Of a DNA stretch of 44,767 nucleotides, positions 1-34,856 are shown in pieces. The notes below the pieces were generated by a model. It was not told the DNA's origin, searched no databases, and saw only the letters and a list, made by a program, of their open reading frames with translations. Numbering within the stretch: the first letter of the stretch is position 1; every line of letters starts with the position of its first letter. The stretch comes from an uncultured Methanosarcinales archaeon. Lineage in GTDB: Archaea > Nanobdellota > Nanobdellia > Woesearchaeales > JAGWAF01. The position numbers and the translations under genes are program-made. The stretch lies in NCBI GenBank assembly GCA_964359785.1, contig CAYHWL010000004.1, positions 1 through 44,767 on the forward strand, in the 5' to 3' direction.

Positions 1-295
1 GATCATATAAGGCAGTGGAGCCAGATGGAATCATCACATCTGTCCCATATTTCTTCGAAAAAAACTCATGTGAGGACCCTGGATTTTTCCCCAGATTCCC
101 TTTCTTGGCAAAATATGAGTCTGCGGCATTGATATCTTTCATCCCCTTGACATTCGCAGGATCCTTGAAAAACTCATCAGCGGCGGCAGGATTTGTCTTC
201 ATCATATTGTCGACGTTCTCTTTCTTTGAGAAATAGACTTTTGCGGCTTCAGGGCTGGCCTTCACATTCACAGTTTGACCGAAATATTTGTCATC
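1..295. repeat. Near-identical coding block shared with 2694..2988
   Basis: gatcatataaggcagtggagccagatggaatc... aligns without gaps to gatcatatgaggcggtggagccagagggaatc... starting at 2694. Confidence 0.9.
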
Positions 296-487
296 ATATT
301 TCGAATTGGTTCCGACTACATTAGGGTACGAGTAATATTTCTGCATACTTTTCATGCACCCTTCCTTGTCACCCATGCATTTATCGAAGTTCTCTACATT
401 TTTTGGGTCAAAGACAATCTCTTCGATGGCAAAACCAACTATGCTAGACAGCAACAACACTAAAACAAGCGTTATGAAGCTCCTCAT
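1..487 (-). CDS. Secreted protein, paralog of 1225..3186 (N-terminal part only; runs off the window edge)
   Basis: Not in the ORF track; translated by hand from ATG at 487: MRSFITLVLVLLLSSIVGFAIEEIVFDPKNVENFDKCMGDKEGCMKSM...DDKYFGQTVNVKASPEAAKVYF..., open to the window edge. Sec-type signal peptide; ATGA overlap with the 484..1182 stop; 87/98 aa identical to the 653-aa protein over the shared block. Confidence 0.9.
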   Translation of the reverse strand, partial: MRSFITLVLVLLLSSIVGFAIEEIVFDPKNVENFDKCMGDKEGCMKSMQKYYSYPNVVGTNSKYDDKYFGQTVNVKASPEAAKVYFSKKENVDNMMKTNPAAADEFFKDPANVKGMKDINAADSYFAKKGNLGKNPGSSHEFFSKKYGTDVMIPSGSTALYD

Positions 488-1182
488 TGCGGCACCTCGA
501 CTGCAAACGCATAATTGCTGTTCATGTCGCTTTCATTGTAAAGCCTAACATCATAGAGGTTCCCTTCCATTTCTCCGAGGTTATACTTCATGGGAAGCAG
601 GTTCATCTGGGTGACATTCAAATAATCGGGATCCACAAGGAATGCGCCCACAGTCAATCTAGCCGAATCAAGATATTCCTGCAAAGTATAGTCAATTTGA
701 GGCGCGAAATTGAAGACTTTCCGCATTTTGCCAGAGGATGTTACAGTTAATGGGTAATAAGTATAGAATGTTATCCTGCCATCACTATAAGACAGATTAG
801 CGGTCGGCGCGGATGCTGTGATCTCATAATCAAATGGCAGTTCACTCGAACAATATACCGCGTCAGCCAAATAGTCTTCTCGGATCATCTCAAGCGCGGC
901 ATCAAGAGTGGGAACATCCCCCTCACCCCTAAAGATAGCGCGTGGCACATCCTTAATATAAACTGTCGATTCGGTCAATATATCCCCAGTCAACGCAAGA
1001 TGGTCCACAGATGCCTGTGCGCTTTGAGTCAAGCAATCCCGCATATAGTTCACAGCATCATCAAACATCGCTTCTTGCGGCGCGACAATGGGCGCACCAG
1101 TAGGTCTTTGCATCAACATCGACACGACTATCAACGCCAATACTCCTATCACAAGATACAGCGTTATTTGACCTTTTTGCAT
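484..1182 (-). CDS. Class III signal peptide (pilin-like) protein, cassette 3
   Basis: MQKGQ/ITLYLVIGVLALIVV prepilin-type N-terminus; paralog of 3186..3881 (shared APQEAMFDD motif, conserved Cys pair). Confidence 0.85.
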   Translation of the reverse strand: MQKGQITLYLVIGVLALIVVSMLMQRPTGAPIVAPQEAMFDDAVNYMRDCLTQSAQASVDHLALTGDILTESTVYIKDVPRAIFRGEGDVPTLDAALEMIREDYLADAVYCSSELPFDYEITASAPTANLSYSDGRITFYTYYPLTVTSSGKMRKVFNFAPQIDYTLQEYLDSARLTVGAFLVDPDYLNVTQMNLLPMKYNLGEMEGNLYDVRLYNESDMNSNYAFAVEVPQ

Positions 1183-1205
1183 GTAAGAACAACCAAGATT
1201 CCAGA

Positions 1206-1213
1206 TATATAAA
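1206..1213 (-). promoter_or_regulatory. Archaeal TATA box for cassette 3 (leaderless)
   Basis: TTTATATA beginning 31 nt upstream of the ATG at 1182. Confidence 0.6.
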
Positions 1214-1224
1214 TCCGTATGGGT

Positions 1225-3186
1225 CTAGTATCCTCTTGAGTTGACTTTTCTCATGAATTCTATTGGATTAACACTATAACTGCTAGGCAACCTCTGCCCT
1301 TGTTCAGCCTTCACGCCAGGTTTTATCTCGAGGTGTAGGTGAGGATCATTGTTTGGCCCCTCAACGCCGTATCCTACCGGTTCGCCGTTAGCTCGACCTC
1401 CTGTCCTTCCAGAATATGCAACAGTTTCTCCTTCAGAATAAGTGTATCCCATATCTTGGACAGGCATCTCGCGTAAGTGACTATATCTTACAGTCACTCC
1501 GGTTTTCATGCCATCTTCTGTCGGATACTGCATATTTGGATAATATACCTCTGCCACAAATCCATGTACTGACTGCCATCCCTTATATGTCATGACCCCA
1601 TCGCCCCAACCAGGCATTGTAGACACCGGCGTTCCTTTAGGCACCCCAAAATCATACCCTCTATGACCGCCACTGACACGACTTGCACCCCACCCGCTTT
1701 GCCACTCACCCATCCCAGTAGGCCAAGATCCTAACTCTCCCTGCGTTCCAGTAGGTAAACTTTTCTTCTGATAGATTGATCCAGTCTGGAATCCGGTCAA
1801 AGTCCCCCTGTCTTGTGATAGTTCTTGAATATCTGCTGTCTTCTTACTCAATGAGTCTATAGTCGCCTTATCAAGCAGACCAGTAGGAGATAACCCTGCC
1901 GATGACTGGAACGTTTTTAACGCTTCGTCGGTCCGTGGACCGAACTTTCCAGTGTCGGTCTCTAGGACATTTCCGTTTGCGTCCTTGACACCCAATTGGT
2001 TGAGTGCTTTCTGAAGGTTAGTGACTTCAGCGCCTCTCATCATATTGCCCTTTGTGTACTTTAGTCCTTCCTTCACTCCAAGATTGGGATTTGGGTTCAG
2101 GTCAACACGGTCAACCGACGCCCCGTCGTTCAAACCCGGCATTGAACTTTCGACACCTAGATGGTATCCTACACCCTTGCTAAAAGCAGGATCCGCTTTC
2201 CATGCTTGGATGGTCGCATCATCAAGAGGAGCATATTCTATTGACCCTTCTGATACAACAGCACGCAATGGGCCGTTAGTAATTACAGCTTCCGCGTATC
2301 TATTCGCAAGGACTCCGCCTTTTGTGACTGATATTGCAGCGTTCTTCATACCCGTCACTTTTGTTTCATCAAAATAAGTGTCCAAAGACTTATCTGCCTT
2401 GACGCTCCATTCTGGGACCGTCTTTCCCATTACATTTTTCATTTCTGCGCTAGAAAGGGTGGTGCCCGACTCAAGGTGACTCTTTCTAGGGTTGAACTCA
2501 TTGCCCTTGCCTTCCGCATCAGATATCATATCATCCATCCGTACTCTGCCATCAGGCATGTGTGATATCTTAGTAAACTCAGAATATTTATTTCCGCTGA
2601 TATCATATCCGCCATCTTTCAAAGGGGATATCCTCTCTCCCTTGAAGGTAGACAGATCAAGTGCTCCTTTATTGATGAGTGAGTTTGTCTTTGGATCATA
2701 TGAGGCGGTGGAGCCAGAGGGAATCGTCACATCTGTCCCATACTTCTTCGAAAAATACTCATGTGAGGATTCTGGATTCTTCCCAAGATTTCCTTTCTTG
2801 GCAAAATATGAATCGGCGGCATTTATATCCTCCATCCCCTTGACATTCACAGGATCCTTGAAGAACTCATCTGCGGCGGCCGGATTGGTTTTCATCATTT
2901 TGTCGACATTCTCTTTTTTTCCGAAATAGGCCTTCGCGGCCTCAAGGCTGGCCTTCACATTTACAGTCTGCGCAAAATATTTATCATCCAATTTAGGCTT
3001 GAGCCCTACAGACTGTTTTCCGGTGGAATACCAGTTACGCATACCCTCCAGACAACTAGATGATTTCATGCAATCATCAAAATTTTCTGATTTATCTGGA
3101 TTGAAAACCACAGATTCAGCGGCGGATCCAGCCAGGCTACAGATAATAAGGATCAATACAGCCAGGGTAAGAGACGCTCGTTTCAT
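1225..3186 (-). CDS. Secreted peptidoglycan hydrolase: signal peptide, conserved N-domain, PG_binding_1 domain, C-terminal M23 metallopeptidase
   Basis: MKRASLTLAVLILIICSLAGSAA signal. RGAEVTNLQKALNQLG...TGKFGPRTDEALKTFQSSAGLSPTGLLDKATIDSL is a three-helix PG-binding domain (~1850-2050). HRGYDFGVPKGTPV (HxxxD), RYSHL, SGRTG and PHLHLEI (HxH) are M23 motifs (~1260-1700). Confidence 0.92.
   Translation of the reverse strand: MKRASLTLAVLILIICSLAGSAAESVVFNPDKSENFDDCMKSSSCLEGMRNWYSTGKQSVGLKPKLDDKYFAQTVNVKASLEAAKAYFGKKENVDKMMKTNPAAADEFFKDPVNVKGMEDINAADSYFAKKGNLGKNPESSHEYFSKKYGTDVTIPSGSTASYDPKTNSLINKGALDLSTFKGERISPLKDGGYDISGNKYSEFTKISHMPDGRVRMDDMISDAEGKGNEFNPRKSHLESGTTLSSAEMKNVMGKTVPEWSVKADKSLDTYFDETKVTGMKNAAISVTKGGVLANRYAEAVITNGPLRAVVSEGSIEYAPLDDATIQAWKADPAFSKGVGYHLGVESSMPGLNDGASVDRVDLNPNPNLGVKEGLKYTKGNMMRGAEVTNLQKALNQLGVKDANGNVLETDTGKFGPRTDEALKTFQSSAGLSPTGLLDKATIDSLSKKTADIQELSQDRGTLTGFQTGSIYQKKSLPTGTQGELGSWPTGMGEWQSGWGASRVSGGHRGYDFGVPKGTPVSTMPGWGDGVMTYKGWQSVHGFVAEVYYPNMQYPTEDGMKTGVTVRYSHLREMPVQDMGYTYSEGETVAYSGRTGGRANGEPVGYGVEGPNNDPHLHLEIKPGVKAEQGQRLPSSYSVNPIEFMRKVNSRGY
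2694..2988. repeat. Second copy of the block at 1..295
   Basis: Ungapped alignment to 1..295; many differences are synonymous. Confidence 0.9.
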
Positions 3187-3881
3187 TACGGCACCTCTAC
3201 TACAAAAGAATAACTTGACAAAGTATTACTGCCATTGAATACCGAGACATCATATCTCCCATTTTCCTGGTGGCCTAAAGTATATCGATTCCCGATACGA
3301 TTCAATGCGCTGATATTGATATATGGGGGATTCATGGTTATAGCTTTCACCGCTTCCTTTCCAGATTCTAGATAGTGATCCAATTGATACTGAACTTGGG
3401 AAGCAAAACCGAATACCTTGCGTGTTCTCCCAGCAGCTGAAATTTGCATTGGTGAGAAAGTGTAAAACGTCAATTTTCCGTCGCCATACGTGATATTAGC
3501 TTGAAGAGAAGAGGCCTTAATGTCATAATTGAAAGGTAGATCCATATAACATACCTCAATCTGGTTTAGGAACTCCTCACGGATCATACGCAATGCTAAG
3601 TCCATCGATGGCACATCATTTTCTGACTTGAAGACTGCCCGGGTCATCCCTTCTAATCGTTCCAATTCCACGTTTCTTAAATCTCCACTCAAAGCAAAAT
3701 TGCTCACAGTATCCGTTGCTGCTGTGTCCAGACAGTCCTGGACATAACTTCTCACATCATCAAACATCGCCTCTTGCGGCGCGATAGTGGGCGCTGGAGC
3801 GGATTTCTGCATCAGAAAGTATCCTACGACCAAGACCAGCACTCCCACAACGATATACAAAGTGATCTGCCCCTTTTGCAT
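3186..3881 (-). CDS. Class III signal peptide (pilin-like) protein, cassette 2
   Basis: MQKGQ/ITLYIVVGVLVLVV; TAATG overlap with the downstream hydrolase; paralog of 484..1182. Confidence 0.85.
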   Translation of the reverse strand: MQKGQITLYIVVGVLVLVVGYFLMQKSAPAPTIAPQEAMFDDVRSYVQDCLDTAATDTVSNFALSGDLRNVELERLEGMTRAVFKSENDVPSMDLALRMIREEFLNQIEVCYMDLPFNYDIKASSLQANITYGDGKLTFYTFSPMQISAAGRTRKVFGFASQVQYQLDHYLESGKEAVKAITMNPPYINISALNRIGNRYTLGHQENGRYDVSVFNGSNTLSSYSFVVEVP

Positions 3882-4627: not shown

Positions 4628-6451
4628 TTACACCTTTAGCGTGCTGAATTTAGGTATCACTCTCTTGTCATTCGGGATATACATCTTAAATGTTTGTTTA
4701 GCCTCTCCACCCCAATAGTTCTTGATCGTATTGACATAAGTCTTAGCTCCTGCTCCGCCATAGATATCAGCCCACTCATTTTTACTAGTGTCTGATCTAT
4801 CAGCAACGTATCCCTTTGGCCCTGATCCACTATCTGTGAGTCCGTACCAACCGTTTTTCTCGGGTCGATCGTTATACTCCATATACACATGGGTTATCCC
4901 TTGACTCTTTAGATCAGCAAATAAGGTTTCATGGACTGCGATGCTCCCAAACAAAGGGGCTTGCCCAGAGGCCGTCTGTCCAACCCAATATTTACGTTCC
5001 GCAGCAAGATTCACATCAGTGCCTTCTTTTGAAGGTGAGAACCCGTATTTTTTCGATTCGGCAGCATAATTTGCCGGATCATTTTTGACAATGGCCCCAA
5101 AAAAGGTGCCTGTCCCTTCCCGCACTTCGAATTTGCTCAAATCAGTCGGAGGATTTACCTTGCGTTCTTCAGGCAGCCTAAACTCCCCAAATGCGCCATT
5201 TATCACTTCTTCACTGACCCCTTTTCTTCGCAATTGATTGATTACCGTTTGATATCGCTGTTGTCCTGGAGAGGTGTAATCTAAACTTGATGCTGCACTC
5301 TGCGCCTCCCTCACTCCCACACTCGCCTGCCTTACCGTCTGCCCTGCCACGTCCTTCACCGTCTCCGTGACTCCAGTAGGCATCGTCTCATAGGTCATAT
5401 CCCCCTTCGCAAGAAGTGGGATATCACCGTTTTGTATCGCAGCTAGCAGTTTCTGGTTTTGCTGTGAATATCCTTTGTATCCTTCGCCAAAGTACTGTTT
5501 GTACAATGCCTCACGCGCGGCGTAGTTCTTACTGCCTTCACCATAGCCATTGTCTTTGAACAATTGTGATATGCTCTGGTATTTCTTGGCAGAAGCCAAA
5601 TCCACAGTGCTCTGTAGTGCGACAGCACTTCCTTTGTAGGTATAAGACACCAGAGGAGCAGTTCCTTTAGCCCCTCGTATCATTGCGACTTTGCCGTCTG
5701 TGAACATATAGTATCCATCGACTGCGACCTTGCCGCCGGCGTTAGAAAGATAGACTTTCTCTCCGATAAAGGCTTTATTCCCTTTGGATGAGTCATAATC
5801 AGCTTTGTCCATATAAAGTGTCAAAGACTCTTTCAAAGGTGTAAGCGTATGTTTGTTGTATCCAATGGATGATCCGCCTTTTTCATCCGCGGGCATACTG
5901 ATCGAATACGCTTTCCCCGCGCGATAATCAAGCAGTGCGGCCTTGGTTCCTGACGTCTTGATATCAAATGTCTTTCCACCAGCCACAATAGTCCCGGAGC
6001 CTATCAGACTATACCCTTCAGATGTCTTGCGCACGTCCAACTTACCACTCGTGCGAACCTCGACACCATCAAGCAATAATCCCTTGTCAGTCGCCTGTAT
6101 CTTTTCCACTCCAGACGCTTTGATCTCGCTATTGGCAAAACTGAACTTGAATTGTCCATCGGCAAGCATAGTGACTCCAGTCAAACCGGATAATCGTTGC
6201 AAAGTGGACAAGTCCAATTTGGCTCCTTTCGGGTGCACAAGCATGCCATTCTCTAATTTGGCTCCTCCAACCAGATCCATTTTAGCTCCGACCCCAAACT
6301 TGGCCTTGGCATAATCCTGGAATAATTTAGGATCTTTGTTGAGGTCATCTTTAATCTTCTCTACTTTGAGTTCAAGCTGTTGTACATCTTCAGCAGCATA
6401 GGCTATGGAGCAGAGCAGCAATATCACAAGCAAGATAGTCACTTTCTTCAT
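4628..6451 (-). CDS. Secreted protein with DUF3597-like cell-wall-binding motif and C-terminal 3D/DPBB-like (lytic transglycosylase-type) domain
   Basis: Start moved to MKKVTILLVILLLCSIAYA at 6451 (GAGGTGA SD, ATGA overlap). SISQLFKDNG...YAAREALYKQYFGEGYKGYSQQNQKLL resembles the S-I-x-D-Y-L...YxGxxxQNxxLL endolysin motif. GTGTFFG...GQTASG...GSIAVH...LTDSGSGPKG...WADIYGG follows the 3D-domain motif order. Confidence 0.75.
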   Translation of the reverse strand: MKKVTILLVILLLCSIAYAAEDVQQLELKVEKIKDDLNKDPKLFQDYAKAKFGVGAKMDLVGGAKLENGMLVHPKGAKLDLSTLQRLSGLTGVTMLADGQFKFSFANSEIKASGVEKIQATDKGLLLDGVEVRTSGKLDVRKTSEGYSLIGSGTIVAGGKTFDIKTSGTKAALLDYRAGKAYSISMPADEKGGSSIGYNKHTLTPLKESLTLYMDKADYDSSKGNKAFIGEKVYLSNAGGKVAVDGYYMFTDGKVAMIRGAKGTAPLVSYTYKGSAVALQSTVDLASAKKYQSISQLFKDNGYGEGSKNYAAREALYKQYFGEGYKGYSQQNQKLLAAIQNGDIPLLAKGDMTYETMPTGVTETVKDVAGQTVRQASVGVREAQSAASSLDYTSPGQQRYQTVINQLRRKGVSEEVINGAFGEFRLPEERKVNPPTDLSKFEVREGTGTFFGAIVKNDPANYAAESKKYGFSPSKEGTDVNLAAERKYWVGQTASGQAPLFGSIAVHETLFADLKSQGITHVYMEYNDRPEKNGWYGLTDSGSGPKGYVADRSDTSKNEWADIYGGAGAKTYVNTIKNYWGGEAKQTFKMYIPNDKRVIPKFSTLKV

Positions 6452-7173
6452 GGGGTCACCTCTAGGTAGACAAGCGCAGCCCTCCAATTCCACGGATTGC
6501 CCGCGACAGAACTGGAAGGGTCTGTGATATTGATTAGATAGATTTCGCCAGGATATCTGATAAGATCATAATGGAGATGACTGCTGATCAAAGAAGTTAT
6601 AGGTATGATAGTCAAATCATCTCGCGCCTCCTCAAGATATTCTTGCAGTGCGCTGTATGCCAATGGAAGATTCAAGTCCACTATCCCTGCCCCACCAGTG
6701 ATATAACTTGTCTTCGCCCCTATTACCAGCTTGAATTGTTGGGTGGGCATCATAGTGACAGTATCGCCTAACATAACCCGAAAAGGGATATCCGATTCCC
6801 ACGTGATAGAGTAATCTGTTTCTGCTCCATTCAAGCATTTCTGGAAGGGCACCACCGCATAAGATGCGATTTGATTCGAGTAATCCTCCAGTGAAGGCAA
6901 TCGGATCTCACCCTCTCTCATCATGACAGCGGCCCCGTCATCGTCTAGGTACTCGATATCAGCACTGTCGGCATCCCCCATGAGCCCGACAGTCACAAGC
7001 GACTCCGAAAGCGCGCTTTGTGTACACTCACCGACTAAGGCGATAGCGCCCGCTCGAGAGGAATCCACCGGAGTGATCACCGGCGCAGGTCTTGATTTAT
7101 AGGAGATAAAGGCAAAGACCACTAACGCCGCGACAGCTAGTATCAGGAATAGAGTTATCTGTCCTTTTCGCAT
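6448..7173 (-). CDS. Class III signal peptide (pilin-like) protein, cassette 1
   Basis: MRKGQ/ITLFLILAVAALVVF; similar length, Cys pair and C-terminal EV to the other two paralogs, but more diverged. Confidence 0.85.
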   Translation of the reverse strand: MRKGQITLFLILAVAALVVFAFISYKSRPAPVITPVDSSRAGAIALVGECTQSALSESLVTVGLMGDADSADIEYLDDDGAAVMMREGEIRLPSLEDYSNQIASYAVVPFQKCLNGAETDYSITWESDIPFRVMLGDTVTMMPTQQFKLVIGAKTSYITGGAGIVDLNLPLAYSALQEYLEEARDDLTIIPITSLISSHLHYDLIRYPGEIYLINITDPSSSVAGNPWNWRAALVYLEVTP

Positions 7174-7211: not shown

Positions 7212-8735
7212 TCAGGCTATCCCGCCAAATGACATCTTCTTAAGAAGAGGTTTCTCTTCTTTGACGATATCACTAAATAACGGCACATAGATAGGTGTGG
7301 CGAAACGCGCGAAATTGCTTGTCACAATCGCCTCCCCCTTGTCAAGCGAGGCTATCTGTCGGTCATCAGAGCTCAAGTCTTGCGCCGCCGATTCGATCAA
7401 TGCTTGCCGTTCAGGTTTCATCTCAACTCCCAAGATTATCTTGGTGTTCATGTTGGCCAAGATGTCCCGAGGAATCAAAGAAGGCAGTTGCGTGATCGCA
7501 ATTAGACCCACTTTAAATTTACGTCCCTCACGGGCAATCGAACCAAACACGTTGCTTCCGCGTTCAAGCGTCTCCTTTCCAAGCACACGGGCGGCTTCTT
7601 CAAGCAAAATAGAGATCACAGGTTTCATAGCGAGCTCCCCTCTTGACATATACCGTTTGTACCTCTCAAATATCTCATGAGCGAGCAGACTGCCGACAAG
7701 CAACTCAATGCTTCCATCAAAGAGGGAGGTGTCAACGATCACAGTATTTGCTTTCTCAAGTTCTCCCACGATATCTGAAAGTGTGCTCTGGCCTATCTTG
7801 TCATCAAACACGCCATGGCAGACGATTCGACTCTCCTCCAGATCAACATTGAGCAGCAGTCCAAGCCTTCTTTTCACGACAGCCACAGTATTCTCATTGA
7901 AATTGAAACCCTCCACCACGCGATCCAAAAATATCGCCTCGATCCACTCGCGTCCAAATCTGCGGTAATAAGCGGCGAGATAATCGCGCTGTGGGTCACT
8001 CCAGTCCAGCACCCCCATGAAGTGTGACGGACGTAACATGGATAGATTGATCTTGAGCGTCCTGGCTCCAGGCGGCGGCATCCTGCAGGTATAGTATACC
8101 ACTTTCTCACGCAGTGGATGGTCTTTCAGCCCCACGCCATTCCGTCCATAATACTCATCATGAGGATCCAAGACTAATATCCCACAATAGCTTTCAGAGA
8201 GCGTTTTCCACAACACTACAGAGCATAGATTCGATTTTCCCTTGCCTGTTGTGGCTGGTATCAGTACATGATGGGAAAACGCTTTCTCGCCATCCAAAAA
8301 GACTGGCACATCAGCCAAAACCTTACTCCCGCTGCGCAGATTCCCCAAAAATAGCGGAGATGCAGGTTTTGTCAGGAACTTAAGGTCGTCAGATGTGACA
8401 GCCCGCACATTGGAGAAGAACGCAGGCAGGTTCTTGCATGATACTGCGCGATACCCATTGATAGTCAATAGACTTTTAGCGCGAGCAAGATTATAATTCC
8501 GCAGATGCTCATCAAAAAAGGGATTCTTATTGTCTTCCTCAAGCCGCAACCCAGAGATCAGTTCCAAATTCTGTGAGGAAAGCTGTGATCCATAGATGAG
8601 ATTATACGCCTGCAACAGTATCAGTCCATCCATGGAAGGCGCGCATAGCAGCTCCCCAAGTTCAATCCCTGCCCCCTTTTTCTCTCGAATGACCAGATCG
8701 CCAAATTCCCCTCCGATGATCAAACCCTTATCCAT
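7212..8735 (-). CDS. HerA-like helicase/ATPase (DUF87, FtsK-HerA superfamily)
   Basis: Walker [23 protein letters not shown], Walker [36 protein letters not shown]; N-terminal HAS-barrel-like region. Confidence 0.88.
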
Positions 8736-9204: not shown

Positions 9205-9261
9205 TAGACCACTCTTTCAAAAGCATTATATATCAAAAAAAGCCTATACATGGCATGGCAA
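9205..9261 (+). repeat. 57-bp direct repeat, copy 1 (promoter plus start codon)
   Basis: tagaccactctttcaaaagcattatatatcaaaaaaagcctatacatggcATGgcaa; 55/57 identical to 14634..14690; contains ATTATATA 30 nt before the ATG. Confidence 0.95.
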
Positions 9262-9791
9262 CAGCCACAAAACCAAGGAAAGATTTCGACGGCAGAGTCT
9301 GGCCGACCATTCTTGATTTCAATGTCAATATAGACTCTCAACTCACATCCAAAGCGAATTTTCTCTTTGGAGCAAGCACATTGATGTTCATGTACTTAGT
9401 GGACAAGTATCTGTTCTCGCCAATAACATTAACTTCTATAGATTACGCGGCAGTCTTGATCCTCCTGGCTGGAAGTTTCATAGCGATGGTCCTTGAATTG
9501 ATGGTCATCCTCCCAAAGATCAGGTTGTTCCAGAAAAAGGAGAGGGTCAAAGAAGATGTGTTGTACTACAAGAACATCATGAACTTCTACACAAGGGAAC
9601 AATATGTCAGGTATCTAAAAGATCTTCCGCTAGACGAGACTAGGATCTCCAAGGCATATGCCAATCAGATATACTCTTTGGCGACACATATAATTCCCTA
9701 TAAATTCGCCATGCTAAAGAAAGCCGGATGGATACAGGTGTTCTCGTTACTAGTGGCCGTCCTTCTTCTGCTTACCGGCCATTTCATTTAA
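9255..9791 (+). CDS. Pycsar effector-like (PycTM/DUF5706) membrane protein
   Basis: SQLTSKANFLFG followed by two TM helices ending ILPK, LYYKNI, then AYANQIYSLATHIIPYKFAMLKKA and a final TM helix; this is the PycTM pattern. Confidence 0.75.
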   Translation: MATATKPRKDFDGRVWPTILDFNVNIDSQLTSKANFLFGASTLMFMYLVDKYLFSPITLTSIDYAAVLILLAGSFIAMVLELMVILPKIRLFQKKERVKEDVLYYKNIMNFYTREQYVRYLKDLPLDETRISKAYANQIYSLATHIIPYKFAMLKKAGWIQVFSLLVAVLLLLTGHFI

Positions 9792-9795
9792 TAGG

Positions 9796-12462
9796 TTATT
9801 TTATCTCGACGTACGCCTTGTCGAAGTCTTTGATTCTCTTTGGCCAATTATATATCCTTCGCTCGCCTTCTTGTTGCACTTCCACTTTGAGCCACTCATT
9901 ATCCATTGAGACGCTCACTCTTGGTTCTGGATTTGAATCCCTTACTGGTCTTATCCCAAGATTTGGAAAGCTCTCTTCAAGATGAAATTTTCCGTCCCAA
10001 CAAGGCTGATCTAGCAGGAAGATGTAGCTTCTGCAAGGTATCACAAGATCAGAATCAGGTTGCCAATATCGCCACAGTTCTTTGTTTCCGTATTCGTTGC
10101 AAGGCCTTACCCGAAGCGGTATTCCCGTTATCCTATCGATCTCATCAGTATGGACTAATCCCGGGTTGCCTGATGGAATTTTCACTTGCGTAGCCATTCC
10201 CTCCAGATCAAGCCCTGGATGGTCTATTAATCTTGATTTGTCCTTGATCACTGAATCAAGAAACTCGACAAAGTTGGATCCCGACATCGAGCCTACCATC
10301 TGACCGTCTTTTTTGTGTTGGGCATCATCAAGCACTTTCCAGAATTCTCCAAGGCTTAGCATGCCTACCCCTAGTTTTTCGCACAGGTTCTTTGCCTCAA
10401 GGTAAGTGATGTGATTTATCCTTCCTTCGTAATCAACTGACAGACCAGGTTCCGCTTTACGCACTTCACGAGTATCGCGTAGAAAGTCCCTTTTCACCCA
10501 TTTGTTTATTGAAGAAGAATGGAAGTAAGAATTGAATGCTGATACCACCGATTGCAGCACAGGGGCTGTCTTTTTCCTTGAGAGCTGTAGTCCTCGTCCG
10601 CTAAAGTCAATCAAGTGTTCTCCTTTGTTTATCTTACAACTAGGGAATTCAAAAGTCACTATCTGCTCCAGGACATCCATAACAGCGTCTTTGAACCCTT
10701 GAGTTGTTTCTGGGTTGAATGCGCAATACAATCTCTCAAGATTCACGTTTTCATTGTCTTGCAGATAATCTGTCAATTTCACCAGTGTAAGAGGCAGATT
10801 CCTCTCAAGAGTATTCTTACTTGCAAGTTCGCAAAGCCGATGATAAAGAGAACCTTTCATTAGTTCGCCTTCCCTGTTGAATCCCCCTTTTATCTTAGCG
10901 ACAGCAAATCCGAATCCCCAATCCTCCTTATAGTCCCTTTGAAATAGTATTGAAGAGTCATCAGTATTCAGAAGGTGCGACATCAGATCAGAGTATAGTG
11001 GATCATCTTCATCCTTGGTTATTCGTTGCAGATGATCCATCAACACTATATCTTGTGAGGTCATCTTATGAGCGACGCGATTTTCTGTGTCCATCAAGGC
11101 TGCAGCGTAGAGGTAGTGCGCCACATCAATCGGGATATCCACACCCATCCCAAGCAGCTTGTTGGTTATAAGGGCCGCCGTGGAGCCTAGCATCTCAAGG
11201 GTCTTTGGGATCACACGTTTCTTTGCCGCATCGCAGACCGCATGGTGATCGATGATGGACGAAAAATACTTCTGGACTTCTGGTTCGCGGTTCTGATCTA
11301 CTGAGATCCACCTTGATAGTCCTGTGCGTTTTGCCTCGCTATAAAGCGGGTCGGTGGTCAGCACAAGTTTTTCTGCTAGGCCTCCAAGGAGCCTGCTCAC
11401 CTCATCAGGCACTCTGCTTGATTGGATGACTGGAATATATGTGATTTTGGAGCCGCCACAATGGTTTCTCCATGCCTCGACCATTGAACTGATCGCTGTG
11501 TCGGTGTCAGGGTTTCTATGCCCCATGACAAAGCATATATCGTTTTTATCTTGAAGTGCTTTCTCAAGGCAAGCCCTCCTTGAGTTGATGAATTCCCTAA
11601 AGCCCCCGAATCTATCTGTGTCCACCCCAAGCGCACAAGCGCAATCCGACACGTCATAAGAAGAGGAGATATTGCCAAGTCTGTCAAAGAATTCCTCTTT
11701 CAATCGAAGCGAGAGCGAATCATCTCCAAGAAATCTTCCGCCATAATTTTTGATGAAAGCCAGGAAGTCTTGTTCTGTCTTGATGGAGTCTAGAAGATTT
11801 AGTATAACCGGGTCTATCATCGGGTTTAGTGGTGAGCGTCTGCATTCTCTTATCATCAGCTTTGGCTGTCGCGCATCGACTGGTATCCCAAGGTCATAGC
11901 TTGGCATACCTACGGAAGTGACATACCCCCTAATAGGCGCCACGGCCCCAAGTTTTGTCACCGAAAGATCAGGTGACCAGTATTTCCAAAGGCTTGAGAA
12001 TTTTTCTCTGTGCGACAAGACATTTCTAGGTTCGCCATTTTCCAAAATGTTATCTTGAGGTGTGAACCATCCAGGTCTTCCAAGCGGCGTGTTGGATGTT
12101 TCTTTTTTTCCAGCATACTGGTATTTCTCTTCCAATGAAGGATTGTCGATGAATCGCAGATCTTGAAGATAGACCCTATCTAGCCACTCTGCGAAAAGTG
12201 GCGATTCCAGTTCGGCTCTCATCTCAGGATCGCTTTCACTATGCACAGTCCAATATTCTATTGGGGTCATCATCACGGAATCGAGTGATTCAAGTAACTT
12301 TTTGCTGCTATCAAAATCAAGATTGATTATCCTTCCCTCGTCATCCCAATCAAGTTTTACGCCTGCATCATCTGCCGCTTGATTGACTCGGGAATCTAAT
12401 CGCAAAGGCGATCTGGCTACATAAAGTCCTGTTTTTTTCGAATATGCAAAGTCCGTTTTCAT
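9796..12462 (-). CDS. Family II (DHH/DHHA2) inorganic pyrophosphatase-like core flanked by two homologous FGE-sulfatase/C-type-lectin-like domains
   Basis: Core motifs VMGHRNPDTDTAISS, SVDQN, IIDHH, GSTAALI, ALMDT, RDYKE, LSRKK. N- and C-terminal regions align: DDEGRIINL/DYEGRINHI, EYW/EFW, PLGRPGW/PSGNPGL, LWKYWSPD/LWRYWQPD, PKLMIRECR/PNLGIRPVR. Confidence 0.8.
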   Translation of the reverse strand: MKTDFAYSKKTGLYVARSPLRLDSRVNQAADDAGVKLDWDDEGRIINLDFDSSKKLLESLDSVMMTPIEYWTVHSESDPEMRAELESPLFAEWLDRVYLQDLRFIDNPSLEEKYQYAGKKETSNTPLGRPGWFTPQDNILENGEPRNVLSHREKFSSLWKYWSPDLSVTKLGAVAPIRGYVTSVGMPSYDLGIPVDARQPKLMIRECRRSPLNPMIDPVILNLLDSIKTEQDFLAFIKNYGGRFLGDDSLSLRLKEEFFDRLGNISSSYDVSDCACALGVDTDRFGGFREFINSRRACLEKALQDKNDICFVMGHRNPDTDTAISSMVEAWRNHCGGSKITYIPVIQSSRVPDEVSRLLGGLAEKLVLTTDPLYSEAKRTGLSRWISVDQNREPEVQKYFSSIIDHHAVCDAAKKRVIPKTLEMLGSTAALITNKLLGMGVDIPIDVAHYLYAAALMDTENRVAHKMTSQDIVLMDHLQRITKDEDDPLYSDLMSHLLNTDDSSILFQRDYKEDWGFGFAVAKIKGGFNREGELMKGSLYHRLCELASKNTLERNLPLTLVKLTDYLQDNENVNLERLYCAFNPETTQGFKDAVMDVLEQIVTFEFPSCKINKGEHLIDFSGRGLQLSRKKTAPVLQSVVSAFNSYFHSSSINKWVKRDFLRDTREVRKAEPGLSVDYEGRINHITYLEAKNLCEKLGVGMLSLGEFWKVLDDAQHKKDGQMVGSMSGSNFVEFLDSVIKDKSRLIDHPGLDLEGMATQVKIPSGNPGLVHTDEIDRITGIPLRVRPCNEYGNKELWRYWQPDSDLVIPCRSYIFLLDQPCWDGKFHLEESFPNLGIRPVRDSNPEPRVSVSMDNEWLKVEVQQEGERRIYNWPKRIKDFDKAYVEIK

Positions 12463-12884
12463 ACTAGCACCCCAATCACTTTTTTAGCTTCTTCCTCGCT
12501 GTCTGCGCAATGGAATATATTGTATGAGAGTCTGCCTTCCAACGCGCAAGTATCATAATTTTGACCCTTGGCATAATCTCCACGGATCGAACCTGCCCTC
12601 GCATCGCTTGGATTGCTTGCGCCCCGTATCTCTAGAAGTCGTTTGATCGCGTCAGGTCCACTCACTCGCAACAGGATGATTTCATTAGTCGTCAGATACT
12701 CCCTCATTTTCGCATAGAACCATTTGGATTTTGTATGTCCGTAGATGATTTCAAATTCATCATTTGACAAGATCTTGCGCTTAGATTCCTCGACAGCAAG
12801 ACCAACAGATTTGATTCGCCAAATGATATCCAAAAAGTGCTCCAGCCCTTCAGGTTTTACCATCCCATATGTTGTCTGAGTCAT
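12459..12884 (-). CDS. ndk: Nucleoside diphosphate kinase
   Basis: TYGMVKPEG, GASNP...GSIRGDYA, NIFHCADS with the catalytic His. Confidence 0.9.
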   Translation of the reverse strand: MTQTTYGMVKPEGLEHFLDIIWRIKSVGLAVEESKRKILSNDEFEIIYGHTKSKWFYAKMREYLTTNEIILLRVSGPDAIKRLLEIRGASNPSDARAGSIRGDYAKGQNYDTCALEGRLSYNIFHCADSEEEAKKVIGVLV

Positions 12885-18987: not shown

Positions 18988-19374
18988 ATGGTGACATTAC
19001 AGATAGTTCCATACACGGAGATTGAAGGGCTCTCATCCCTTGGTCGTATACGCAAATTGCTCAACATCGCAAAAGAGGATAAGATAGTCCTTCTGCAAGG
19101 CCGTCTGAAAAAGGAAGAGGAGGCCGAACTCATCAAAGTGACCATGGAAGAGATCAACAGCGAATTCCGGGGGATTGAATTGGCTGTGATAAACCCCTTA
19201 GAATCAAAATCAGATGGCATCTTCAAGTTAAGAAATGATATGATAGGTATGCTCCTAGGCGATAGGCATGGCCTTACTGTGGTAGGCCCTGCGAGTATTG
19301 TCAAATCTATCCGAAAAGATCCGCACAAGATCGAGCTTTTGACCAAAGAGTCTCAAAAGAAGAAGAAGAGGTGA
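18988..19374 (+). CDS. oapB: DUF2073 family protein OapB
   Basis: IVLLQGRLKKEEEAELIKVTMEEI...FRGIE...GLTVVGPA family pattern; synteny. Confidence 0.85.
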   Translation: MVTLQIVPYTEIEGLSSLGRIRKLLNIAKEDKIVLLQGRLKKEEEAELIKVTMEEINSEFRGIELAVINPLESKSDGIFKLRNDMIGMLLGDRHGLTVVGPASIVKSIRKDPHKIELLTKESQKKKKR

Positions 19375-19377
19375 ATC

Positions 19378-19773
19378 ATGCCTCACCAATGCGTCCGTTG
19401 TTCTAAGATGTATGCCGATGGCTCTCAAGACATCCTCAAAGGATGTGAATGCGGCGGCAAGATGTTCTTCTTCATCAGGAAAGAAAAACTTGAGGAGTCC
19501 AAGAAAGCGGCGGATGCTGTGAAGCTTACCACGGATGACCGCAAGGCCATTGAGGAGGATGTCTTTGAGATGCTGACAAGCAGGCTCGACCACGAAGCTC
19601 CAGTGGTCCTGGACCTGGAAGCTGTAAATGTGCTCAAACCAGGTCAGTATGAATTGGATCTTGTCCACTTGTTCCAGAATCAGCCTCTTATCTATAAATT
19701 GGAGGAAGGCAAATATATCATCGACCTTGCAGCCTCATTCCAAGAACTAAGAAAGGACAAGCCGCAGGACTAG
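19378..19773 (+). CDS. oapC: Zn-ribbon protein OapC (DUF2072)
   Basis: MPHQCVRC...ILKGCECGGKMF, PGQYELDL, EEGKYIIDL; synteny. Confidence 0.88.
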   Translation: MPHQCVRCSKMYADGSQDILKGCECGGKMFFFIRKEKLEESKKAADAVKLTTDDRKAIEEDVFEMLTSRLDHEAPVVLDLEAVNVLKPGQYELDLVHLFQNQPLIYKLEEGKYIIDLAASFQELRKDKPQD

Positions 19774-25816: not shown

Positions 25817-25918
25817 AGTACATACAGGCATATGTGTATATTTGAACATTTGGTTTCAGGGTATTTCACTCGAACAAATAAAGCAATTCTTTTATACCCC
25901 CCACAAGAACGTCCCCTT

Positions 25919-26638
25919 ATGGCCAAGAAACATCCCGAGATAATCCTAGTCATCCCGACTTATAATGAGTCCCAGAACCTCCCGCTGCTAGTGGAGGGAA
26001 TCGATAGAGCGATCAAGAAAGAATCCTACATCGTTTTCATAATCGACGACGGCTCGCCAGATGGTACGGCCAGCTTAGCCGAAAAACTCTCAAAAAAATA
26101 CCCCATCACAGTCTTTAGAAGAGCTGGAAAGCTTGGTCTTGGCACAGCTTACATCTTCGGATTCCAGGAAGCGTTCAAACTCTCCCCCAAGTTCATCATC
26201 AGCATGGACGCTGACCTATCCCACGATCCAAAATACCTGCCAATCCTCTTGAAAAAAGCGAGAGCGGGCGCAGACATCGTCCTAGGTTCCAGATACATCA
26301 AAGGCGGCGGAGTCCAAAACTGGGGCATCCATAGAAAGATCATGTCGAGGGGAGCGAACCTTATGGCCAGATTAGCGTTAGGCATCCCTGCTAACGACCT
26401 CACAGGCGCATTCAGATGTTTCAAGACGCAGACTCTTATGTCTTTAGATCTGGAATCCATCAAATCCAACGGCTACTCTTTTCTCGAAGAGATACTATAT
26501 CTCTGCGTCAAACAAGACTTCAAGATCCAAGAGATCCCCATCATCTTCAAAGACAGGGAGCTTGGCGCTTCCAAACTCTCAAAAAAAGAGATGGTCAAGT
26601 TCTTCTGGACTCTGATCAGGTTGAGGTTCTTGAGATAA
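25919..26638 (+). CDS. Polyprenol monophosphomannose synthase-like GT2
   Basis: IPTYNE, DDGSPDGT, KLGLGTAY, MDADLSHDP, GSRY, DLTGAFR, SNGYSF; start moved to MAKKHP. Confidence 0.92.
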   Translation: MAKKHPEIILVIPTYNESQNLPLLVEGIDRAIKKESYIVFIIDDGSPDGTASLAEKLSKKYPITVFRRAGKLGLGTAYIFGFQEAFKLSPKFIISMDADLSHDPKYLPILLKKARAGADIVLGSRYIKGGGVQNWGIHRKIMSRGANLMARLALGIPANDLTGAFRCFKTQTLMSLDLESIKSNGYSFLEEILYLCVKQDFKIQEIPIIFKDRELGASKLSKKEMVKFFWTLIRLRFLR

Positions 26639-26672
26639 TCACCTTTTTATCTCCCCCCGAATAAATCCACCC

Positions 26673-27452
26673 ATGACCCACTGCAATCTCGAAGGCTACA
26701 CGATTCACGCAAAACAGATGTCTCGTAGAGTCAGAGACCGAAAATCCCATCCAGAGCTTTCCGCGATAGATCGGATAGTGGAGGCCAAGTTACAAGAGAG
26801 ACAACCCCTCACGATCCTCGACATCGGTTGTGGCACTGGTGAACGGCTCAAGATGATCCTTGAAAGATCAGATATTGACCTAAATAAGGCAAAAATCACT
26901 GGTGTGGACTTCTGCCTCCCTCTTTTAGAAGAGGCAAAAGACAAGGAACTAAACGGCAGAAAAATCTATTGCGATCTCATCCACACTGACGCAAAAGACA
27001 TCCCAAATGAAAAGCAGTTTGATATTATTCTCTGTTTATTCTCAGTCCTAAACAACGTAGGTGACCTCATGGCGGTAAACACTTGGGCCCCACTCCTAAG
27101 AAAAGACGGCCTCCTGATCCTAGACGTCCTGCATCCGGGAGTCATCCCACATTTCTTCAAGGACAAGGAGCCGATACTAGAAAAAAGATTCGGCAAGACA
27201 GAACAAAACGTCTTCTATTACCGAAGAAAGACCGACAACTCATTTGGCCAAGCGACGATCTGGTCATTCGACATCCTAGCCGACACGCTCCAAGCGAACA
27301 ACTTAGCCATCAAAGAGGCTTACGATATCCTCACATTCAGATCAAAAGGGAGAAAAGGCGCCTTGGCAAGACCCTACAAAGACAACACCCCAGGCACTAC
27401 TCACGAGAAAGCCTGGCCAAACAGTATCCTCTTCATCTGCACCAAACCTTAA
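26673..27452 (+). CDS. Class I SAM-dependent methyltransferase
   Basis: ILDIGCGTG, GVDF, FDIILC, LRKDGLLILD. Confidence 0.88.
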   Translation: MTHCNLEGYTIHAKQMSRRVRDRKSHPELSAIDRIVEAKLQERQPLTILDIGCGTGERLKMILERSDIDLNKAKITGVDFCLPLLEEAKDKELNGRKIYCDLIHTDAKDIPNEKQFDIILCLFSVLNNVGDLMAVNTWAPLLRKDGLLILDVLHPGVIPHFFKDKEPILEKRFGKTEQNVFYYRRKTDNSFGQATIWSFDILADTLQANNLAIKEAYDILTFRSKGRKGALARPYKDNTPGTTHEKAWPNSILFICTKP

Positions 27453-27478
27453 TAAACAAACGCAAGATTTCTCGTCTT

Positions 27479-28645
27479 ATGTCCTGGTTTCCAAAATACG
27501 AATTAAAGCCGATCTACAAGCCTTTTGTCCAAGTGATTGACTTTCTAGGCAGTATCATGTTCTCCCCTTTCAAGCCAAAAGAAAAGATCATAAATAGCGA
27601 TATCAAAAGCATCCTCCTCATCAGATTGGATAACATGGGCGATGTCCTCACAACCACACCAGCTATAAGGGCGATAAAAAAAGGATTCCCAAACTCCAAG
27701 ATTGACATCCTTATCCGTCCAGCGACAAAGGATCTGATAAAGAACCATCCGGCGATTGATAAGGTCATCGAATTCGACAGCCCATGGCTGCACAGGTCTG
27801 GCGCGTTGAATATCCTCGAATCCTTCAAAGCATTCAAGTCCAATCCGATAATCAGCCAATTAAGACAAAAACACTACGACTTAGCTATCGAATTCCATAC
27901 CGATCCAAGGAACCTCTTGTTAACCTACATAATAGGCGCCAAAAGAAGATTAGGCCATGATGTGAGAGGCCTTGGATTCCTTCTTACAGATGTGGTCCCA
28001 TACAAGAAGGGGAATCATATCATTGAGCGTAATCTTCTCCTCCCAGAGTATCTCGATTGCAAAGCAAAAGACAAACACACTGATCTTTTCTTGGACAAGC
28101 CTTCCTTCACCCAAGCCGATAGATGGATAGAAAAGAACATCAGAGGCCAATTCATCTGCATCAATCCTTGCACAGGAAGGCCCAACAAATTCTGGTTAGA
28201 CCAAAGGTGGGCTCAAGTGGCAGATCAGCTCATCGAAAAGCTCGGCATCACTGTGGTTTTCACGGGCGCAAAACAGGACACTGATAGAATAAACAATATC
28301 ATCTCCCAGATGAAGAACAGATCTTCCGCAAAAGTTGCGGCAGGGTCTCTTTCCCTGCTTGCGAGCGCCGCTTTATTCAAGCGATCCAAACTGCTTCTAG
28401 CCACGGATACAGGTCCGCTCCATATAGCCAAAGCGATGAGAACACCTATCATAGGCCTCTTTGGTCCAGTTGACCCTAAAGAATGGGGCTATGATGACAA
28501 GACTAGCATCACGATTGACAAATTCAAGGATTGCAAGTGCAAGTATCTTCCTGACTGCGTGCAGGAGGATAAGTATTTATGCATGAGAGGGATATCTGTC
28601 CAAGAAGTGGTTGAGGCGGCTTTGAAGTTATGGAAAAAGAACTAG
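27479..28645 (+). CDS. Glycosyltransferase family 9 (heptosyltransferase-like)
   Basis: ILLIRLDNMGDVLTTTPAIRAIK, YDLAI, KFW...WAQV, ATDTGPLHIA...IIGLFGP; start placed at MSWFPKY (27479). Confidence 0.9.
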   Translation: MSWFPKYELKPIYKPFVQVIDFLGSIMFSPFKPKEKIINSDIKSILLIRLDNMGDVLTTTPAIRAIKKGFPNSKIDILIRPATKDLIKNHPAIDKVIEFDSPWLHRSGALNILESFKAFKSNPIISQLRQKHYDLAIEFHTDPRNLLLTYIIGAKRRLGHDVRGLGFLLTDVVPYKKGNHIIERNLLLPEYLDCKAKDKHTDLFLDKPSFTQADRWIEKNIRGQFICINPCTGRPNKFWLDQRWAQVADQLIEKLGITVVFTGAKQDTDRINNIISQMKNRSSAKVAAGSLSLLASAALFKRSKLLLATDTGPLHIAKAMRTPIIGLFGPVDPKEWGYDDKTSITIDKFKDCKCKYLPDCVQEDKYLCMRGISVQEVVEAALKLWKKN

Positions 28646-30510: not shown

Positions 30511-30511
30511 C

Positions 30512-31609: not shown

Positions 31610-31707
31610 GTGGTTAGCCAAAGGCCCCCCAGTTTTAAAACTTGCCAAGCATTGTGATCCTTCAGTTCCCTGATAGGTTTTTATAGGGCTTCTCTCTCAA
31701 GCCAGAA

Positions 31708-32790: not shown

Positions 32791-32852
32791 GGCATATCTC
32801 TCGTCTTATATCATCCATTACACTTATAAACTTCGCATCATTGCCCCAAGTC

Positions 32853-34247: not shown

Positions 34248-34271
34248 ATAAAGGTTGGGTGCATCACGATT

Positions 34272-34856
34272 ATGGTCAAATACACTCTAGACACTGCCCC
34301 TGGCAAGAATATTCTATTAGGCGGCGGCCTGATGAAAAGGGAAGGTTGGCTCGTCTGGGATCTCAACGTGCCAAGCGCGCAGATCAATCATGATCTGACA
34401 AAATTCCCTTACCCTCTAAAAGACAACACGGTCTCACAAATAGAAGCCACTCAAATTTTCGAGCATCTGGATGACTGGAGATCCACTCTCTACGAATGTC
34501 ACAGGATGCTCAAACCCGGCGGGCTTATCATGATCCAAGTGCCTCACTACATGGGTATCTACGCCTGGAGTCATTTTGATCACAAATCAGCTTTCAACGC
34601 GTATAGCATGGAGCCGTTTATCAGCAATCCTGCAAGACATTTCCTTTTTGAGGAGACAGTTGATGCGATGGTGCATGACAAAGCAAGATTCGAGTTGGTG
34701 AGGCGCAGGATAATGTTCCCAAAAGGCGCTTGGTTTTGGGGATACCCATTGGAGTGGGTAACCAACCTATGTGCTTACACCCAGCTTATCCATGAGTTCT
34801 GGCTAAACGGCATCTTCAAACCGTCTGGTGTCATGTTTGTGCTAAAGAAGATCTAA
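34272..34856 (+). CDS. Short SAM-dependent methyltransferase-fold protein
   Basis: HDLTKFPYPL, FEHL, ECHRMLKPGG, VPH; motif I is atypical (LLGGG); paralog of 40898..41485. Confidence 0.8.
   Translation: MVKYTLDTAPGKNILLGGGLMKREGWLVWDLNVPSAQINHDLTKFPYPLKDNTVSQIEATQIFEHLDDWRSTLYECHRMLKPGGLIMIQVPHYMGIYAWSHFDHKSAFNAYSMEPFISNPARHFLFEETVDAMVHDKARFELVRRRIMFPKGAWFWGYPLEWVTNLCAYTQLIHEFWLNGIFKPSGVMFVLKKI

Follow-up and report, generated by a model that had tools for sequence, protein, structure and literature searches.

What use could a wall-less archaeon have for a secreted protein built like a bacterial murein hydrolase, and how would such an enzyme be brought to its substrate? This question is raised by P0001, a 653-amino-acid (aa) protein encoded near the start of a 44,767-nucleotide (nt) stretch of DNA (contig CAYHWL010000004.1 of GenBank assembly GCA_964359785.1, positions 1 to 44,767), the whole of which we refer to as the window, and which belongs to a Woesearchaeales (DPANN) archaeon. 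We find that P0001 combines a PG_binding_1 domain and an M23 peptidase head with a lineage-specific carrier, that related proteins bear a different catalytic head on the same carrier, and that these genes lie in cassettes, each opened by a gene for a partner protein. We consider it fairly probable that P0001 is a secreted murein endopeptidase of this wall-less archaeon, tethered by its partner and directed against a contacted bacterium, and we infer its enzymatic activity, its bacterial target, its tethering by the partner and its ecological role from the evidence below. The gene and its parts are as follows.

1225..3186 including the stop codon, (-) strand: P0001 gene, 653 aa, carrier plus PG-binding domain plus M23 head (open reading frame (ORF) list, translation, Pfam).
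3118..3186, (-) strand: signal peptide of P0001, aa 1-23, MKRASLTLAVLILIICSLAGSAA, Sec-type by inspection.
2740..3090, (-) strand: helical-repeat part of the carrier, aa 33-149 (AlphaFold2 model).
2092..2709, (-) strand: beta-rich part of the carrier, aa 160-365 (AlphaFold2 model; residues of the predicted interface).
1849..2037, (-) strand: PG_binding_1 domain, aa 384-446 (Pfam; also placed here by the whole-genome search; three helices in the model).
1669..1848, (-) strand: low-confidence linker, aa 447-506 (predicted local distance difference test score, pLDDT, of the model).
1243..1668, (-) strand: M23 (LytM-type) metallopeptidase domain, aa 507-648 (Pfam, invariant alignment columns, Foldseek).

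The gene is a single uninterrupted reading frame, 653 codons' worth of protein, and the span 1225..2050, where the initial annotation had seen an intact PG-binding plus M23 endopeptidase module on an archaeal secreted protein, corresponds to the last 275 aa and the stop codon. Pfam, the catalytic residues and the structural model confirm this observation. Pfam recognizes two domains in P0001 and no others: PG_binding_1 (PF01471), with 53.9 bits against a cut-off of 23 (E 2.1e-14), and Peptidase_M23 (PF01551) at aa 507-623 (window positions 1318..1668), which scores 30.0 bits where 28.7 are required (E 6.1e-7) and 31.7 bits when the genome was searched. We accept the marginal M23 score since it is backed by the motifs, by the invariant residues and by the fold of the model. 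For the C-terminal 275 aa, the AlphaFold2 model reaches a mean pLDDT of 80.5, with at least 90 over most of both domains, and shows PG_binding_1 as a three-helix bundle (helices at model residues 7-19, 39-51 and 62-84, pLDDT about 90), followed by a linker in which pLDDT drops below 50 at model residues 80-106 and 123-127.

Both zinc-binding motifs noticed at the outset are present, HRGYD from aa 508 and PHLHLE from aa 615, and a YSHL motif beginning at aa 568 holds a further catalytic histidine, H570. The five residues concerned, H508 (codon at window positions 1663-1665), D512 (1651-1653), H570 (1477-1479), H616 (1339-1341) and H618 (1333-1335), are unchanged in 19 of 19 aligned M23 sequences, namely P0001, 3 relatives with the same carrier, 11 other Woesearchaeales M23 domains and 4 bacterial-type proteins. 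By analogy with LytM and lysostaphin, we take the histidine and aspartate of HxxxD and the second histidine of HxH to be the zinc ligands, and the other two histidines to be catalytic. A Foldseek search with the 275-aa model returned 59 chains at E <= 0.001, the best being LytM (2b13_A, E 1.2e-8, target template modeling (TM) score 0.75), with ShyA, lysostaphin and zoocin A among the further matches; by sequence alone, zoocin A was the sole solved relative (E 0.0071), and in NCBIfam the M23 part came closest to MepM, at E 7.7e-4 and far under the MepM cut-off. These matches span Gly-Gly, D-Ala-L-Ala and D-Ala-mDAP (meso-diaminopimelic acid) enzymes alike and single out no one bond or bacterial target.

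The LytM domains of EnvC and DipM were also found among the structural matches, and together with the marginal Pfam score, the insertions near the active-site loops and the loss of a conserved G-N they would suit a protein whose M23 domain only binds, as in EnvC or NlpD, and which acts as a non-catalytic adaptor or adhesin in attachment. Degenerate LytM factors such as EnvC and NlpD are without the metal-binding residues, whereas P0001 retains all five metal-binding and catalytic residues. Because all ligands are kept, we do not file it with these factors, and we regard a purely adhesive role as very improbable.

How does this head relate to the rest of the protein? Six full-length members of the family share one order, i.e., signal peptide, carrier of about 360 aa, PG_binding_1, linker and head. 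The head is M23 in the window protein and in three relatives (30-95 bits overall; 48-95 bits for the relatives), and in two further relatives it is a Glucosaminidase domain (glycoside hydrolase family 73, GH73; 26.8 and 35.7 bits, cut-off 30.2), with the glutamate-containing GH73 family motif visible in the alignment of these two proteins. Since paralogues hold GH73 where P0001 has M23, the catalytic head is an exchangeable graft, and since the PG-binding domain is kept in M23 and GH73 paralogues alike, it belongs to the conserved carrier. Thus, of the proposal that a bacterial module had been grafted onto an archaeal stalk, the grafting of the head is borne out, while the arrival of PG-binding domain and M23 head as one unit is not. 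At the start of a contig from a related genome, a partial ORF (L011:19..801, (+) strand) encodes the last part of a PG_binding_1 domain and, after it, about 230 aa without a Pfam match; by eye, this stretch has Cys and His motifs that recall peptidases of the NlpC/P60 or CHAP type and may be a third kind of head.

The carrier of about 360 aa together with its PG-binding domain is a narrow, lineage-specific family. With P0001 as the query, 5 of 61 genomes gave a match, its own included, one of them (G048) through the PG-binding part only, and a profile of the N-terminal 375 positions matched 4 of 11 genomes of the taxonomic family, in two genera. A scan of the contigs of species-representative genomes with a five-sequence carrier alignment gave 3 loci, all in two genomes already found, and no carrier relative was present among 314 pattern matches in JGI metagenome contigs or among 61 pattern matches in viral contigs. 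When 5.8 billion proteins were searched by word index, with all of P0001, its C-terminal module or the family alignment as the query, the matches were P0001 itself or proteins joining a PG-binding domain to GH25, with no near-length relative of P0001, a result that is uninformative about relatives. The carrier model (pLDDT 83.5, mostly above 90 in the helical-repeat part) shows four AAxxYF-type motifs in the helical repeats, at aa 83, 104, 123 and 140. Foldseek found no solved fold for it at E <= 0.001 (best E 0.023), and VIA-align gave only generic helical-repeat matches, the best with a Z of 6.0, which is within chance for helical repeats, with the beta-rich part barely covered; we propose no new fold on these grounds. 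The archaeal stalk suggested at first is supported, in that the carrier is lineage-specific, with no detectable relative beyond 4 closely related Woesearchaeales genomes and no solved-fold match.

With respect to the origin of the M23 head, 2173 proteins matched P0001 at E <= 0.001 in an exhaustive search of representative proteins. Of these 2173, 150 were listed, most of them aligning to the PG-binding part only, and among the matches listed five besides the query reach past query residue 140, i.e., P0015, a relative from the same taxonomic family, and P0053, P0067, P0117 and P0097, which, like P0028, are bacterial-type multi-domain murein hydrolases. In a tree of 46 M23 domains (111 columns, many long branches), P0001 is firmly paired only with a relative from genome G007 (100/98), a pair that a long-branch Rubrobacter sequence joins, and 18 of the 43 inner branches are open; the four M23 domains of the family are scattered on the best tree, with their monophyly not rejected (approximately unbiased (AU) test, p 0.478). 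Because the choice of sequences was biased, with bacterial and phage domains taken as best hits to the query and archaeal ones by Pfam score, we draw neither a donor nor a direction from this tree. Acquisition from bacteria, as the initial annotation had it, is plausible, and on general grounds a bacterial ultimate origin of the module is likely.

No close plasmid or phage relatives were found, the best matches being 26-35% identical over the M23 part only, and a phage collection gave 6 weak matches (30-32% identity), again limited to the M23 part. An Atlas look-up of this part returned short, mostly phage M23 clusters, which confirm the family and are silent on origin. The possibility that P0001 is a phage endolysin or tail lysin was rejected, given the weak phage matches, the lack of the carrier in viral contigs and the cellular archaeal neighbors of the gene.

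How would such a protein be held by the cell that makes it? The genes around that for P0001 suggest an answer, in that the window contains three tandem cassettes, each with a partner gene followed by a larger gene for a secreted protein. The other members of these cassettes are as follows.

3186..3881, (-) strand: partner gene, 231 aa, N-terminus MQKGQITLY followed by a hydrophobic helix (ORFs; partner alignment A5).
484..1182, (-) strand: partner-family gene of the next cassette, 232 aa, product 46% identical to that of 3186..3881 (alignment A5).
2..487, (-) strand: 5' part of a second carrier gene, 162 aa, 70% identical to P0001, cut by the contig end (ORF list, alignment).
6448..7173, (-) strand: partner-family gene, 241 aa, N-terminus MRKGQITLF, 24% identity in alignment A5 (profile search of its own genome, E 5.7e-71).
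4628..6451, (-) strand: gene for a large secreted protein, 607 aa from the ATG at 6451 (ORF list).

A partner-family gene of 208-254 aa lies before each lysin gene and on the same strand, in six full cassettes in relatives and in 3 of 3 cassettes in the window. In most cases the stop and start codons of the two genes overlap, and in all three window cassettes the stop of the partner gene overlaps the start of the large gene; the sequence TAATG was read directly at 3184..3188, and the overlaps in the other two cassettes were taken from ORF coordinates. On a contig of a related genome (L011), at least 3 cassettes succeed one another, with an Mre11-like gene after them. In the window, a 42-nt spacer (1183..1224) separates the M23 gene from the partner gene of the following cassette; it contains a TATA-like sequence, TTTATATAT, about 25 nt upstream of the ATG, and this candidate archaeal TATA box would give each cassette its own promoter. 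For the 607-aa protein, sequence searches of Pfam, NCBIfam and PDB gave no match, and it is not significantly similar to P0001; it may carry an unrecognized head or serve a different function. Small genes beside the cassettes were considered as a conserved third component or immunity gene, and in an all-against-all BLASTP of nine sequences, three of the larger cassette proteins included, they showed no mutual similarity at E <= 1e-3.

The partner proteins begin with M(Q/R)KGQIT and about 20 hydrophobic residues in 3 of 3 window copies, and similarly in most relatives. This N-terminus would suit the archaeal class III (prepilin) signal pattern, K/R-G/A and then a hydrophobic helix, and equally a plain membrane anchor. 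The genome of P0001 has 13 matches to the partner-family profile, two Peptidase_A24 (prepilin peptidase) matches above the cut-off and type IV assembly ATPases (three T2SSE matches, two above the cut-off). In the Atlas, the partner falls into hypothetical clusters found only in DPANN. A loose version of the pattern, of our own making, is matched by 4 of 42 long ORFs in the window, i.e., the three partner genes and P0001 itself, the N-terminus of which matches while those of other carrier-family members do not. The same loose pattern, K/R-G/A with a long hydrophobic stretch, is also seen at the N-terminus of 8 of 31 other M23 proteins of the order (L027, L030, L033, L035, L050, L052, L055 and L056), in which the pilin-like or membrane-anchor N-terminus is part of the hydrolase itself.

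Does the partner bind the carrier? Structure prediction of the carrier (aa 24-378, 7-row alignment) with the partner ectodomain (aa 36-231, 8-row alignment), the two alignments being unpaired, gave a median interaction prediction score from aligned errors (ipSAE) of 0.61, against 0.01 for the best of 3 controls. The mark for this score was attained by 116 of 157 solved complexes and by 2 of 215 mismatched pairs, counts that are only a rough guide here because we used our own alignments. The runs had at least 62% of contacts in common, with a partner pLDDT of at least 81, and they place carrier aa 309-321, 345-361 and 375, which take in its last beta-strands (aa 309-361), against partner aa 184-210 and 230. 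The prediction supports binding of the carrier by the partner.

In a rival explanation, P0001 diffuses freely after secretion, either as a bacteriocin-like lysin against competitors or as a scavenger of necromass that breaks down wall remnants to yield amino sugars and amino acids, and the partner is unrelated to this function or helps in secretion or folding. P0001 has the same domains as the halophile enzymes with experimentally shown activity (PMC12352652), its signal peptide is Sec-type by inspection, its partner is not a recognized pilin, and recycling of cell material by Woesearchaeota was proposed by Vigneron et al. (PMC9723730). However, a free lysin would leave unexplained why the partner gene is conserved and apparently translationally coupled in every cassette, and why a 360-aa carrier is conserved if only the PG-binding domain and the head count, and the predicted binding of the partner, well above controls, also argues against it. 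We consider a free lysin unlikely, though it is the rival that we take most seriously.

What would the substrate be in the host itself? The genome (1.65 Mb, 184 contigs, 87.7% complete) is that of a Woesearchaeales archaeon, and the contig carries archaeal genes for OapB, OapC, a YGR210-type GTPase and HerA, with an even GC content of 0.40-0.49 across the window. Contamination or a chimeric contig end was rejected, given the even GC, these archaeal genes and the finding that in three related genomes, too, such cassettes have archaeal genes as neighbors. In this 87.7% complete genome we found no SEDS protein (FtsW/RodA) and no transpeptidase, and a single Mur_ligase_M match was weak (25.9 bits) and in a family that also matches in wall-less control archaea. 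With both domain types in one protein, in an archaeal genome without detected murein synthesis genes, P0001 classes by its domains as a putative modular archaeal peptidoglycan hydrolase.

An endogenous role, in which the M23 head processes the cell's own surface proteins or pilins, or serves envelope remodeling or division, would draw on how common M23 is in the order, i.e., in 144 of 301 sampled genomes, 139 of them above the cut-off (142 of 299 without the unpublished genomes G253 and G281, which the first tally includes), on the 8 of 31 other M23 proteins with the loose N-terminal pattern and on the pilin-like genes that accompany the cassettes. Some M23 enzymes, such as LasA, cleave Gly-rich substrates other than murein, which would also suit this role. 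Nevertheless, murein is indicated both by the PG_binding_1 domain and by the GH73 heads that replace M23 on this carrier in paralogues, and no murein synthesis machinery was found in the genome. The companions of M23 in other members of the order likewise point away from an endogenous role, in that among the 31 other M23 proteins examined we found LysM in 1, a LysM2-type domain with Hydrolase_2 in 1, SLT in 2 and 3D in 1; PG_binding_1 was found in 0 of these 31. We judge an endogenous role to be improbable.

A different polymer could also be meant, e.g., the pseudomurein of a methanogen host. Partnerships between Woesearchaeota and methanogens have been proposed, pseudomurein has peptide cross-links, and PG_binding_1 is present in a methanogen control genome. 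However, pseudomurein lacks the GlcNAc-MurNAc (N-acetylglucosamine-N-acetylmuramic acid) beta-1,4 bond on which GH73 acts, its known endoisopeptidases are cysteine peptidases and not M23 enzymes, and Pfam finds no pseudomurein-binding repeat in P0001. We give an archaeal wall polymer as the target very little probability.

The favored reading, a partner-tethered lysin against bacteria, would then work as follows. The lysin would be translationally coupled to its partner gene, and its signal peptide would export it. The partner would hold it on the cell surface, or on a pilus-like fiber, through the last beta-strands of the carrier, the PG_binding_1 domain would dock it on the murein of a contacting bacterium, and the zinc-dependent M23 head, beyond its flexible linker, would cut peptide cross-links. 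Paralogues with GH73 heads would cut the glycan, such that the copies of one genome together attack the peptide and glycan parts of murein, and the archaeon would thus open the wall of a bacterium that it touches, be it host, prey or competitor, rather than acting through a freely diffusing bacteriocin. That archaea of this kind attack bacteria or live off them has already been proposed in print (PMC12352652, PMC9723730), and P0001 fits this idea. More tentatively, we suggest a "lysin rack" mounted on the surface or on pili, in which the partner captures the carrier by beta-strand pairing and heads, M23, GH73 and perhaps further kinds, are exchanged among tandem cassettes, giving a contact-dependent opening of bacterial walls; this is a possibility that we hold with clearly less confidence.

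Several observations weigh against a tethered, active lysin aimed at bacteria. The M23 Pfam score of P0001 barely exceeds the curated threshold (30.0 vs 28.7 bits). Measured against canonical M23, the domain also has three insertions, and where a G-N usually follows the second strand (YGNxV) it reads HGFVAEV; because of these insertions and the missing G-N its activity may be altered or lost. The presence of M23 in 144 of the 301 genomes of the order could indicate a housekeeping role, and PG_binding_1 is also present in the Methanosarcina control genome, that of an archaeon without murein. As to the tether, the complex score is a model confidence obtained from shallow unpaired alignments (7 and 8 rows), a plain N-terminal membrane anchor suits the partner N-terminus equally well, the partner has no pilin family match in Pfam or NCBIfam, and its sole structural hint, TadE, has a TM score of 0.37, under the bar of the tool.

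How does P0001 compare with known systems? Murein hydrolases in archaea, Nanoarchaeia included, are already published, and the general phenomenon is known. Modular murein hydrolases have been reported in 175 of 3,706 archaeal genomes, prominently in Nanoarchaeota, with M23 homologues in four Nanoarchaeia genomes, and halophile enzymes of this kind were shown experimentally to kill bacteria (Strock et al., PLoS Biol 2025, PMC12352652). The Woldo (M23) and Danwoldo proteins of Halogranum salarium resemble P0001 as secreted archaeal proteins that join PG_binding_1 to an M23 head, and share with it a patchy distribution and domain shuffling (PMC12352652). They also differ: in Woldo, M23 is N-terminal of two PG-binding domains, whereas in P0001 it is C-terminal of one (PMC12352652), and P0001, unlike Woldo, has a 360-aa lineage-specific carrier ahead of its PG-binding domain, belongs to a family that alternates M23 with GH73 on one carrier, and is encoded by a type of gene coupled to a partner with a pilin-like N-terminus, in tandem cassettes.

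GH23 lytic murein transglycosylases have been described in Woesearchaeota (AR20 and metagenome-assembled genomes from Lake A), where the authors suggested predation (Vigneron et al. 2022, PMC9723730). These enzymes are from the same order and have the same inferred purpose, attack on bacterial murein, as P0001; they are of another class, glycan-cutting GH23 as opposed to the M23 peptidase and GH73 found here, and they are described without a carrier or partner cassette. In the text of PMC9723730, "M23" and "pili" have 0 occurrences each. A literature search on pilin-linked murein endopeptidases in DPANN gave matches that, by their titles and abstract openings, concern CPR (Candidate Phyla Radiation) bacteria. 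Within the reach of these sources, the carrier family, a separate coupled partner predicted to bind it, the exchange of M23 and GH73 on one carrier and the tandem array appear to be undescribed.

Among bacterial enzymes, LytM, lysostaphin, zoocin A and ShyA/MepM have a fold in common with the P0001 head (Foldseek E 1e-8 to 1e-6), with HxxxD, H and HxH present, while identity between the P0001 M23 domain and bacterial M23 endopeptidases is 19-26%, with the three insertions on the side of P0001, and the targeting domain is SH3b, LysM or the zoocin target recognition domain (TRD) in the bacterial enzymes and PG_binding_1 in P0001. P0053, P0067 and P0117 are 33-37% identical to P0001 over about 230-245 residues, with collinear PG-binding domain, linker and M23, and besides P0015 are the only such proteins among the matches listed; P0097, with 33% identity, is aligned only to query residue 146. 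The X-Tfe proteins (Xanthomonas-type type IV secretion system (T4SS) effectors) also join PG_binding_1 to M23, and P0117 carries the X-Tfes_XVIPCD domain. P0001 does not, Pfam finding no XVIPCD domain in it, which sets it outside the X-Tfe group; the X-Tfe-like M23 domains, moreover, form a clade of their own (97/92) without P0001 and have extra lysozyme, SLT or GH19 domains.

The remainder of the window places the cassettes in a cellular archaeal setting. The herA gene (7212..8735, (-) strand) is directly upstream of the window cassettes, and an Mre11-like phosphoesterase gene is directly downstream of cassettes in two relatives (listed at L003:1..1116, L004:180..1373 and L011:10119..11333). 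Since HerA matches the DNA-repair type and the Mre11-like gene follows the cassettes in relatives, we read this adjacency as herA-mre11 synteny, and the cassettes seem to sit within or beside an archaeal herA-mre11 repair neighborhood. HerA was also considered as an ATPase motor for secretion by the cassettes, which is unsupported, its best family matches being DNA-repair HerA.

Further along, a 178-aa protein (9255..9791, (+) strand) matches PycTM, the transmembrane domain of Pycsar anti-phage effectors (E 6.8e-9, 36.5 bits, cut-off 27.2), and no cyclase was noticed beside its gene. The next gene (9796..12462, (-) strand, 888 aa) has a weak DHH-family match of 26.9 bits, under the cut-off of 28.1, and lies upstream of a nucleoside diphosphate kinase gene (12459..12884) with a 4-nt overlap. 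The genes for OapB and OapC are adjacent at 18988..19773 ((+) strand), after a small GTPase gene, and since these origin-associated genes stand side by side they suggest a replication origin nearby. A long surface-glycan cluster extends over 25832..43295 on both strands, with several glycosyltransferases of families GT2 and GT4, a B12 radical-SAM (S-adenosylmethionine) enzyme, a DegT aminotransferase, RmlD/RmlC-like proteins, methyltransferases, a PMT-type mannosyltransferase and a GT9 heptosyltransferase-like protein, the last being unusual for an archaeon.

Whether DPANN archaea make physical contact with bacteria, and how, is largely unknown, as almost none of these archaea are cultured, and archaeal murein hydrolases are now an accepted sign of antagonism between archaea and bacteria. 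As roughly half of the Woesearchaeales genomes sampled contain M23, the trait would seem far commoner in this order than among archaea as a whole, where approximately 5% is the published figure; the comparison is not direct, since that figure counts modular enzymes only. To this, the locus adds a concrete architecture, i.e., a conserved carrier, swappable heads that would cut peptide or glycan, and a dedicated partner that may fix the lysin to the surface. If the lysins are indeed racked on the cell in this way, the hosts or prey of this DPANN lineage would be bacteria and not archaea. Knowledge of which bond the head cuts, in DAP-type versus Lys-type murein, would narrow the possible bacterial targets, and a confirmed complex of partner and carrier would reveal how an archaeon without a wall directs an enzyme against the walls of others.

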